Positions 27,878 through 30,800 are shown, counted from the first letter of the stretch. The stretch is 31,469 nucleotides of DNA from Eubacteriales Family XIII. Incertae Sedis bacterium (GCA_031272745.1 JAISTF010000188.1:1-31469), one strand, 5' to 3'. Made by a program: numbers and translations. The notes: generated by a model not told the origin, from the sequence alone.

Positions 27878-30800
27878 GCGCGAAGGTTTGCACAAGGTGC
27901 TCATGATCGGGTCCGGCCCCATCATCATCGGCCAGGCGGCCGAATTTGACTACGCGGGCACGCAGGCCTGCAAGGCCATCCGCGAAGAAGGCATCGAATG
28001 CGTCCTCGTCAACTCCAACCCCGCGACGATCATGACCGACGAGGGCATCGCGGACAAGGTCTATATGGAACCCCTCACCGAGGAAGCCCTCGAAGCCATC
28101 ATCGCGCGCGAAAAGCCGCAGGGCCTGCTCGCGGGCTTCGGCGGACAGACCGGACTCAACCTCGCGATGGAGCTCGACGAGAAGGGCATCCTCGCGAAAT
28201 ACGGCGTGGCCCTGCTCGGCGTCAACAAGGACAGCATCCGCCGCGCCGAGGACCGCGAGGAGTTCAAGGTCCTCATGAAGGAGATCGACGAACCGATTCC
28301 CGACAGCGTCATCGCGCACGGCATGGACGAGTGCCGGGCCTTCGTCGAGAAGGTCGGCTACCCCGTCATCATCCGCCCCGCCTACACGCTCGGCGGCACG
28401 GGCGGCGGCATCGCGACAAATGACGAAGAGCTCGACACGCTCGTCACGAGCGGCATCGAAAACAGCGCCATCGGCCAGATCTTATTGGAAGAAAGCGTCG
28501 CGGGGTGGAAGGAAATCGAGTATGAGGTCATGCGCGACGCGAAGGACAACTGCATCACGGTCTGCGGCATGGAGAATTTCGACCCCGTCGGCGTCCATAC
28601 GGGCGACTCGATCGTCGTCGCGCCGATCCAGACGCTGCGGGACTACGAGTACCAGATGCTGCGCGACGCGGCGCTGAAGATCATCCGCAGTCTCGACATC
28701 GAGGGCGGGTGCAACGTGCAGTTTGCGCTCGACCCGGACACGAGCCACTACATCGTCATCGAGGTCAACCCGCGCGTGAGCCGCAGCTCCGCGCTCGCGT
28801 CGAAGGCGGCGGGCTATCCGATCGCAAAGCTCGCGGCGAAGATCGCGCTCGGTTACAGCCTCGACGAGCTGAAAAACTATGTGACGGGCGAGACGAGCGC
28901 GTGCTTCGAGCCGACGCTCGACTACTGCGTCGTGAAATTCCCGAAGTGGCCGTTTGACAAATTTAAGACGGCCTCGCGCAAGCTCGGCACGCAGATGAAG
29001 GCGACGGGCGAGGTGATGAGCATCTCGCGCACGTTCGAGAGCGCGCTGCTGAAGGCCATCACGAGCCTCGAGATCAAGCGCGAGGGGCTGCGCGTGCCGT
29101 ACATCATGCAGCTCGGCGACGAAGAGCTCGTGCGCAAGATCGAAGAGCGCGACGACGAGCGCATCTTCGCCATCGCGGAAGCGCTGCGGCGCGGGATTGA
29201 CCCCGGGCGGCAGGATGCCGCCCCTACAATGATGGACAAGCTGTACGACCTCACGAAGGTCGACCGGTGGTTTCTCGGCAAGCTCTACCGCATTGTGAAA
29301 ATGGAAAAGACGCTGGCGGAGGCGCGCGGCGTGCTGAGCCGCGATCTCATCTATGAAGCCGAGGAGATCGGCTTCACGGACAACGAAATCCTCGCGCTGT
29401 CGGGCGCGGGCCGCGACGTGCTCACGGACATCCGCGTCTACAATGAGATCTACCCCGTCTACAAGGTCGTCGACACCTGCGGCGGCGAGTTCGAGGCGCT
29501 GACGCCGTACTACTACTCCTGCTTCGACGCCGAAGACGAAAGCCGGATCTCTGACGCCGAAAAAATCCTCATCGTCGGCTCCGGCCCCATCCGCATCGGG
29601 CAGGGCATCGAGTTCGACTACTGCTGCGTGCGCGGCGTGTGGGCCATCAAGGAGCTCGGCTACGAGGCCGTCATCATCAACAACAACCCCGAGACGGTCA
29701 GCACGGACTTCGACACCTCGGACAAGCTCTATTTCGAGGCGCTGCATGTCGACGACGTGATGAACGTCATCAAAAAGGAGCGCCCGCTCGGCGTGATTCT
29801 CCAGTTCGGCGGCCAGACCTCGCTCAACCTCGCCGAGGATCTCGACCGGCGCGGCATCCGCATCCTCGGCACGAGCTTCGCGTCCATCGACCTCGCCGAG
29901 GACCGCCAGAAGACGACGGACTTTCTGCGGACGCTCGGCATCGATACGCCGCCCGGCGTCTCCGTCACGACGCGCGAGGCCGCCTTCGCGGCCGTGAAGG
30001 AGCTCGGCTACCCGCTCGTCGTGCGCCCGTCCTACGTCATCGGCGGCCGCGCCATGCAGGTGGTGTACAGCGACAAGGAGCTGCTCGAATATCTCTCCGA
30101 AGCCGTCTCCCTGTCCGACGAACACCCCGTGCTCATCGACAAATACATCTTCGGCAAGGAAATCGAGGTGGACGCAATCTCGGACGGCGAGGACATCCTC
30201 ATCCCCGGCATCATGGAGCACGTCGAGCGCACGGGCGTCCACTCGGGAGACAGCATCAGCGTCTACCCCCCGCACACCGCGCCGGCAGGCGTGTGCGACA
30301 TCCTTATTGAATATACGGAAAAAATCACGCGCGGCCTCGGCGTCGTCGGCCTCGTGAACATCCAGTACGCGTGGGACGGCGAAAAGGTCTGGGTCATCGA
30401 GGTCAACCCGCGCGCCTCGCGCACGGTTCCGATCATCAGCAAGGTGACGGGCGTCCCGATGGTGAAGCTCGCGGTCGCGTCGATGCTCGGCCACCGCCTG
30501 GCAGACTCGGCGTACGGCACCGGCCTCTACAAAAAGATGGCGCTGACGGCCGTGAAGGTGCCCGTGTTCTCGGGCGCGAAACTCACGGAAGTCGACATGT
30601 CGCTCGGCCCCGAGATGAAGTCGACGGGCGAGGTGCTCGGCGTCGACGTCTCCTACGAAAAAGCCTGCTACAAAGGCTTCCTCGCGAGCGGCGTCCACAT
30701 CCCCACGGGCGACGGCGAGGGTCTCTACGTCCGCCTGAAGGACCCCGACAAAAACGAGGATTCGCTCGCCGTCGTGCGCGCCTACGTGGACGAGGGATTC

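Follow-up and report, generated by a model that had tools for sequence, protein, structure and literature searches.

The window, that is, the whole 31,469-nt stretch of DNA analyzed here (GCA_031272745.1 JAISTF010000188.1:1-31469), belongs to a MAG of a Eubacteriales Family XIII Incertae Sedis bacterium. This MAG, referred to below as G000, comprises 1.62 Mb on 233 contigs, has a completeness of 84.8%, and a G+C content of 63.4%. The features of the window that are relevant here are listed in Table 1, and the central one is a short hairpin repeat (REP) that lies in frame inside carB, the gene for the large subunit of carbamoyl-phosphate synthase (CPS).

The carA gene is located directly upstream and overlaps the start of carB by 8 nt. 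The carB reading frame continues to a stop codon at 31107-31109, and Pfam recognized the CPSase_L_D1, D2, and D3 domains and the MGS domain in the product, with both preATP-grasp/ATP-grasp halves present. The gene had been described in a first-pass annotation as otherwise intact, and the stop-free translation and complete set of CarB domains agree with this. Using phmmer, residues 1-1060 could be aligned to E. coli CarB (E = 1e-285). Domain order, the match to E. coli, the fold (see below), and the carA partner are all those of CarB, and the ORF is CarB. A protein search of the whole assembly found no second carB in this 85%-complete MAG, so that carB appears single, as the first-pass annotation had proposed to verify. 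A redundant paralogue was considered and rejected, since the only other match was an unrelated ATP-grasp protein (E = 2e-4). The MAG also contains two OTCace_N carbamoyltransferase genes, thus the carbamoyl-phosphate product has consumers. The dN/dS values of carB were 0.125, 0.147, and 0.109 in comparison with the same-genus genomes G001 and G002, and with G021 from another genus of the same family, respectively, and, judged by these substitution rates, the gene is under purifying selection relative to its nearest relative, G001. The consensus promoter that had been attributed to carB stands in part: the -10 hexamer is perfect and the distance to the -35 hexamer is 17 nt, but the latter is weak, with a 3/6 match, and the site belongs to carA and not to carB. 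The spacer before carA is AT-rich. The poor -35 hexamer is the reason that the site was absent from the consensus scan.

Table 1. Coordinates of carA, carB, REP copies, and other features (window positions unless a G000 contig is given)
Feature	Position	Strand	Remarks
Inverted REP doublet	9095..9166	+	In frame, GRQDAAPT ... CRGGLQPP, in 844-aa ORF 8519-11053; inverted partner 9143-9166
Long REP variant	10883..10935		~21 extra nt in loop; in frame near C-terminus of 844-aa ORF 8519-11053
Long REP variant	11089..11141		~21 extra nt in loop; in next ORF, 10774-11832
Promoter-like site upstream of carA	26708..26736	+	TTGCAT 26708-26713, 17-nt spacer, TATAAT 26731-26736
carA, glutamine amidotransferase small subunit	26768..27877	+	Pfam CPSase_sm_chain + GATase; likely start ATG 26774
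carB, carbamoyl-phosphate synthase large subunit	27870..31109	+	1079 aa, intact, no internal stops
PGRQDAAPTM, 30 nt	29202..29231	+	Between flanks identical in P0009 (GGG ATT GAC ... ATG GAC)
REP copy inside carB	29204..29228	+	25/25 to consensus of 150 genomic copies
carB REP, 5' stem arm	29205..29212		
carB REP, loop	29213..29215		
carB REP, 3' stem arm	29216..29223		
carB REP, CTAC	29224..29227		Complement of GTAG tag
carB REP, final A	29228		
ProC gene with two REP inserts	C220:354-1343		L048
TGT gene with REP insert	C26:4563-5771		L058
DUF559-like ORF	C230:4542-5561		
DUF559-like ORF	C79:858-1919		
DUF559-like ORF	C104:9168-10196		
DUF559-like ORF	C27:147-1085		

When carB is translated from ATG 27870, the sequence across the repeat reads ...ALRRGIDPGRQDAAPTMMDKLYDLTKVDRWFL..., with residue 446 being the first G of the repeat, and the translation of 29195-29235 bears out the start position that had been reported. 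The 24-mer at 29205-29228 forms codons 446-453 (GRQDAAPT), codon 446 beginning at 29205, and is identical to 9095-9118 elsewhere in the window. A codon-level comparison with a sister metagenome sequence (P0009) showed 9 nt where the window has 30, and a phmmer search against PDB sequences gave a single 10-residue gap in the row of E. coli CarB (1BXR), between S448 and V449. The latter gap shows that the earlier estimate of about 10 residues, or 30 nt, added in frame is correct. The site falls in the oligomerization domain, which Pfam delimits to residues 423-510 of the window CarB, and this was also the region named before.

With a maximum of three mismatches, the 24-mer was found three times in the window, compared to 0 times in 100 dinucleotide shuffles, and 150 times in the whole MAG, on many contigs and in both orientations (72 forward and 78 reverse), whereas the reversed control pattern did not occur in the MAG at all. 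The abundance relative to these controls shows that the carB REP is real and well above chance. According to position-wise counts over the 150 copies, the consensus consists of an optional GG, a C, a stem, loop, and second stem arm, CTAC, and usually an A. The 8-bp stem (GGGCGGCA and TGCCGCCC) with its 3-nt loop GGA is conserved in 147-150 of the 150 copies, and CTAC, which reads GTAG on the opposite strand, directly follows the stem on the plus strand in 149-150 of them. The RNA hairpin predicted for the carB copy pairs exactly the two stem arms. Folding of a 56-nt stretch with this copy gave -20.6 kcal/mol and an 8-bp GC-rich stem, with a z-score of only -1.33. When variants with long loops are included, the MAG contains 188 copies in 131 clusters. 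Two to four copies are present in 41 of these clusters, and inverted pairs occur, for example, at 9095/9143 in the window and in the TGT gene. The contig with carB carries four further copies, and the inverted doublet among these is situated in the linker between a Fer4_20 and a Pyr_redox_2 domain. The repeat displays the hairpin, the GTAG tag, the high copy number, and the inverted dimers of the GTAG-tagged REP superfamily, and is a member of it. Among 40 relatives, no copy (≤3 mismatches) was present in the same-genus genomes G001 and G002 and in 37 others. The only trace outside G000 consisted of four variant copies in G021. The latter have the loop GGT instead of GGA and the tail CTACG, and are located at C7:69763, C14:37226, C4:114657, and C14:50710.

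The occurrence of REPs in coding regions was surveyed by scoring codon usage as log-odds, with long ORFs of the MAG itself as the training set, a method which is cruder than a proper gene caller, and by which the carB frame surpassed the other five frames by >1000 units. In this crude census, 38 of the 122 evaluable REP clusters (31%; 131 clusters in total) were situated in one open ORF frame with coding-like flanks on both sides. The same coding-like status was obtained for 60% of random positions, so REP clusters are depleted in ORFs, and a predominantly extragenic location was found only in part. Because intragenic units are a listed feature of the superfamily (PMC3733652), the 31% share in ORFs is a quantitative departure and does not disqualify the repeat. 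It also means that carB is not special in G000. Pfam analysis of 20 REP-bearing ORFs showed that the domains span or bracket the inserts. The proteins concerned include ProC (two sites), TGT, a class I tRNA synthetase, an MFS transporter, a solute-binding protein, an aldo-keto reductase (AKR), an AIR-synthase-like protein (AIRS_C), an M20 peptidase, an aminotransferase, an SNF2 helicase, and a protein with a histidine kinase ATPase domain (HATPase_c). The G001 and G021 orthologues of TGT and ProC lack the inserts and represent clean empty sites, thus carB is not the unique, clearest evidence of tolerance as which it had been put forward. ProC contains two separate REP-containing inserts, of ~17 and ~15 residues, and TGT an inverted REP doublet that accounts for ~21 extra residues. 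The ProC and TGT inserts exceed the 25-nt REP core, and the additional residues are not conserved between sites. Among 51 copies within ORFs, the repeat is read as GRQDAAPT in 21 cases, as CRGGILPP in 10, as VGAASCRP in 9, as AAGCRPY in 8, and as GGRMPPL in 3. Five of the six frames are open, and none of the 51 copies uses the frame that contains a stop codon. The hydrophilic GRQDAAPT frame, which is the one used in carB, occurs about twice as often as an even distribution would give. Copies in ORFs are about equally close to the consensus as the other copies (0.87 versus 0.66 mismatches).

The first-pass annotation assumed that CarB normally has no extra residues at this position, and that the insert had entered a spot of invariant length in a highly conserved enzyme. 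The alignment that it had proposed with CarB of Clostridia was made with 29 CarB orthologues from related genomes and 54 further metagenome homologues, the sources naming Clostridiales Family XIII MAGs. The first assumption is true of E. coli and of the majority of the Clostridia searched, most of the 29 orthologues having no extra residues at the S448/V449 site, but not of the Family XIII clade, in which the closest relatives carry other inserts. G001, whose CarB is 91% identical to that of the window, has a different, non-repeat insert of 17 residues at the same site. G002 (83% identity, same genus) and G019 (81%, another genus) share a 9-residue insert, G021 has one extra residue, and P0009 (86%) only three. 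Loops of equivalent length in relatives without the REP, which had been named as evidence against the first-pass reading, thus exist in part (+9 in G002 and G019, and +17 in G001). The 54 metagenome homologues displayed two patterns: a stable 9-residue form and a highly variable form with 0 to ~41 extra residues. The notion of a length-invariant spot thus finds no support in this clade, and the variation indicates that the loop entered by the REP was already permissive and prone to indels. A tree calculated with FastTree from the alignment without the loop columns, and read for its topology, placed the window and G001 together with P0009 as sister, and loop-less sequences were nested among looped ones, with gains and losses scattered over the tree.

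At the level of sequence, the stable form of the loop resembles RERRGTDPRFT and the variable form reads RRGID ... DTAG-x-FSID (homologues P0002-P0055, L011-L021). In this Clostridiales Family XIII subclade, the turn after ...ALRRG, at 29190-29240 in the window, is a hot spot for indels. A 715-nt contig from a termite gut metagenome (X2), ~87% identical to 28928-29539 and derived from another species, has 66 nt in place of the 45 nt at 29195-29239 and thus yet another loop. This match hints that relatives of the MAG live in termite guts and landfills. That the 17-residue insert of G001 is a repeat of the G001 genome was considered and rejected: BLAST gave only weak matches that were GC-rich and consisted of Ala codons, and 14-mers counted over 31 kb of G001 sequence revealed no REP-like family. 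The nearest relative over the whole protein is 91% identical. A word-based protein search found no empty-site allele of carB, and the closest sequence over residues 395-520 was 74% identical. Since the loop differs in each relative, the available sequences contain no before-and-after pair of carB from which the exact boundaries of the insertion or a target duplication could be read.

For the modeling, which the first-pass annotation had proposed to base on the E. coli CPS structure, AlphaFold2 was used with an alignment of 39 sequences (A1). The resulting CarB model had a mean pLDDT of 84.8 and a pTM of 0.87, and superimposed on 1BXR chain A with a TM score of 0.94. It comprises a helix at 431-441, a coil at 442-453, and helices at 454-462 and 466-484. 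Residues 445-451 (PGRQDAA) have a pLDDT below 50 and constitute one of only three such segments in the model. A low-confidence coil between confident helices, together with the TM score of 0.94, suggests that the REP peptide is disordered and the surrounding fold unchanged, and the peptide is predicted to be a disordered excursion of the helix-turn-helix connection. In E. coli CarB (PDB 1BXR, 1JDB), with which the window CarB has the domain order and fold in common, the oligomerization domain (residues 401-552) mediates the dimer-to-tetramer step, and oligomerization through this domain does not affect the regulation of activity (PMC6245113). The insertion site corresponds to the turn after the E. 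coli helix ending in ...FRAGLS448. Relative to the E. coli protein, the window CarB is 10 residues longer at this turn, against 0 to ~41 in relatives from the clade.

Among the G000 copies listed, 49 are identical 24-mers, including the carB copy. The synonymous divergence between the carB genes of G000 and G001 is 0.59, and the presence of 49 identical copies in spite of this divergence indicates that the REP expansion is much younger than the split from G001. Judging from the sequences, the same probably applies to the carB insertion itself, and the lack of differences from the consensus implies that this copy could be very recent. If so, the low dN/dS mostly covers the time before the insertion and says little about the time since. 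The insert may be tolerated in the long term as well, but selection may not yet have had the time to act on this copy.

By analogy with other REP systems, the mobilizing enzyme would be a RAYT-type tyrosine transposase. A Y1 transposase/RAYT (PF01797) was not found in the 233 contigs of the 84.8%-complete G000, while control genomes gave matches, and some REP-bearing species also lack REPtrons (PMC3733652). For Firmicutes and Clostridia, searching the literature on RAYTs or REPs yielded only word matches of no relevance. G000 has four ORFs of ~310-350 aa with weak DUF559-like matches, one of which was above the cut-off. Three of the four are clearly paralogous and have the motifs SHxTAAxxWGxP ... 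LLGLQMCxHPPG in common. DUF559 proteins were rejected as REP mobilizers, because these ORFs were >1.6 kb from the closest REP or shared no contig with one.

The first-pass reading holds in that the repeat is a genuine REP copy and in that carB is intact, the only copy found, located behind carA, and under purifying selection; its premise of invariant length is not supported. We consider it quite probable that carB, present in single copy, is functional, and that the repeat is a young, neutral to mildly deleterious passenger at a permissive loop. A GTAG-tagged REP family has expanded only in the lineage of the G000 species, and one element has joined carB in frame. The site of insertion would be a surface loop that connects two helices of the oligomerization domain, and at which residues are gained and lost freely in the clade. 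The carB mRNA would then be read through the hairpin, resulting in a CarB with an extra, disordered loop of ~10 residues, PGRQDAAPTM. Intragenic copies in general would persist if they pass three filters: a length that is a multiple of three, a frame free of stop codons, and a permissive loop. A CarB with this loop most likely still works, which would make the insert a neutral or slightly deleterious passenger rather than an adaptation.

A less favorable outcome for the cell, which we regard as unlikely, is that the REP has impaired or inactivated carB, which would then be a pseudogene of very recent origin or encode a crippled enzyme still free of other lesions. The identity of the copy to the family consensus, and hence its possibly recent origin, would fit such a state, as would the fact that dN/dS is blind to the period after insertion. 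Moreover, 8 of 24 same-family genomes gave no carB match, which suggests that loss of carB is tolerated in the group, and the MAG is only 85% complete. However, carB is free of internal stops and frameshifts and retains its domains, the helices on either side of the insert and the overall fold were modeled with confidence, and carA is intact and translationally coupled, with carbamoyltransferase genes present. Relatives extend the same loop by up to ~41 residues, and the repeat recurs in dozens of further housekeeping genes, which is incompatible with each insertion being lethal. A role for the insert, either through a loop that alters oligomerization or allostery or through an mRNA hairpin that, for instance, blocks decay or makes translation pause, seems very unlikely to us, even though tetramers form through the domain that contains the insert and its RNA can form the stable, GC-rich 8-bp hairpin described above. 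The same peptide is found in unrelated proteins and in linkers, which counts against a function specific to carB, the site varies among relatives without a conserved insert sequence, and the fold z-score of -1.33 is unremarkable. The preference for one frame in ORFs (GRQDAAPT in 21/51 copies) would suit co-option, but selection for a peptide that is hydrophilic and suited to loops would explain it equally well.

There is hardly any chance, in our view, that the metagenome assembler introduced or mis-joined the repeat. The MAG is fragmented (233 contigs), and in X1, the run with the best match (51% of words), the Logan contigs stop at 29153 and resume at 29246, leaving the REP unbridged between pieces with a low depth of ~3-5. 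A mis-join at a 24-nt repeat, though, would connect unrelated loci, and is implausible here because both flanks of the REP are collinear with carB in one frame, with flanking codons identical to those of P0009. Four more REP copies are present on the same contig, and the related termite gut contig has a different insert at the same site.

In-frame insertions of this kind have a precedent. Di Nocera, De Gregorio and Rocco (2013, BMC Genomics 14:522) catalogued GTAG and CGTC REPs located in frame within genes, the extreme cases being Opitutus terrae and Rickettsia conorii (PMC3733652). Their survey found GTAG REPs in Proteobacteria, Cyanobacteria, Chloroflexi, and the PVC group, and most units were intergenic. 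Some were wholly inside ORFs of known proteins, where single units add 7-10 residues and dimers 20-30, and these were argued to be neutral because of their location in loops or linkers (PMC3733652). The G000 repeat resembles the GTAG REPs of this survey in being a short, GC-rich stem-loop with an unpaired GTAG, in its high copy number, and in its inverted dimers. It differs in its host, which belongs to the Clostridia, the words Firmicutes and Clostridi being absent from the article, and in that CPS does not appear in the supplementary list of decorated ORFs (PMC3733652). Furthermore, in contrast to the mostly intergenic REPs of the survey, ~31% of evaluable G000 clusters are in frame according to our crude census, and a RAYT was not found in G000. 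With the REPIN/RAYT systems of Pseudomonas and E. coli, the G000 family shares the GTAG head, the hairpin, inverted doublets such as 9095-9166, and a lineage-specific distribution of near-identical copies (PMC3116915, PMC3337134, PMC8266576). Those systems are essentially extragenic and possess a single-copy RAYT, whereas a large share of the G000 copies is translated and PF01797 was not found in this incomplete genome.

A further comparison is with the palindromic elements of Rickettsia (RPE) and Wolbachia (WPE). RPE-1 measures ~100-150 bp, corresponding to 30-50 residues, while the G000 unit is far shorter (25 nt), has a GTAG tag, and shows no sequence relationship. RPEs (Ogata et al. 2000, 2002, cited in PMC3733652 and PMC10969869) are selfish palindromes that have inserted in frame into many housekeeping genes of a genome of small size, where they undergo translation and are tolerated on the protein surface. 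The G000 REP is like RPE and WPE a selfish palindrome that is translated in frame in housekeeping genes. The short repeats of R. conorii are CGTC-tagged (PMC3733652), in contrast to the GTAG tag in G000, and the hosts of RPEs are obligate intracellular alphaproteobacteria and not a Clostridiales Family XIII bacterium. The carB REP thus behaves in the manner of the Rickettsia palindromic elements, but it does not belong to this group, from which it differs in sequence family and host.

Because intragenic GTAG REPs were catalogued in 2013 (PMC3733652), the carB insertion, although real, is an event of a type that has been described before, and it leaves the understanding of REPs and of CarB unchanged. 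It does provide a clean natural case in which translation can pass through a selfish hairpin repeat within a large and highly conserved metabolic enzyme. The position equivalent to E. coli S448/V449, which tolerates 0 to ~41 inserted residues, is useful as a permissive tag site in CPS. Intragenic GTAG REPs are herewith extended to an uncultured Clostridia lineage that was not part of the 2013 survey (PMC3733652). The genome-wide pattern is more interesting than the carB instance. A wider, rather doubtful possibility is that REP colonization has been an engine of loop-length evolution in the housekeeping enzymes of this clade, with the 0 to ~41 residues in the CarB loop being decayed insertions of the REP type. 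If this were true, the MAG would show the process live, with about a third of the REP clusters translated and the hydrophilic frame preferred, and would present a Bacillota counterpart of the RPE phenomenon of Rickettsia.
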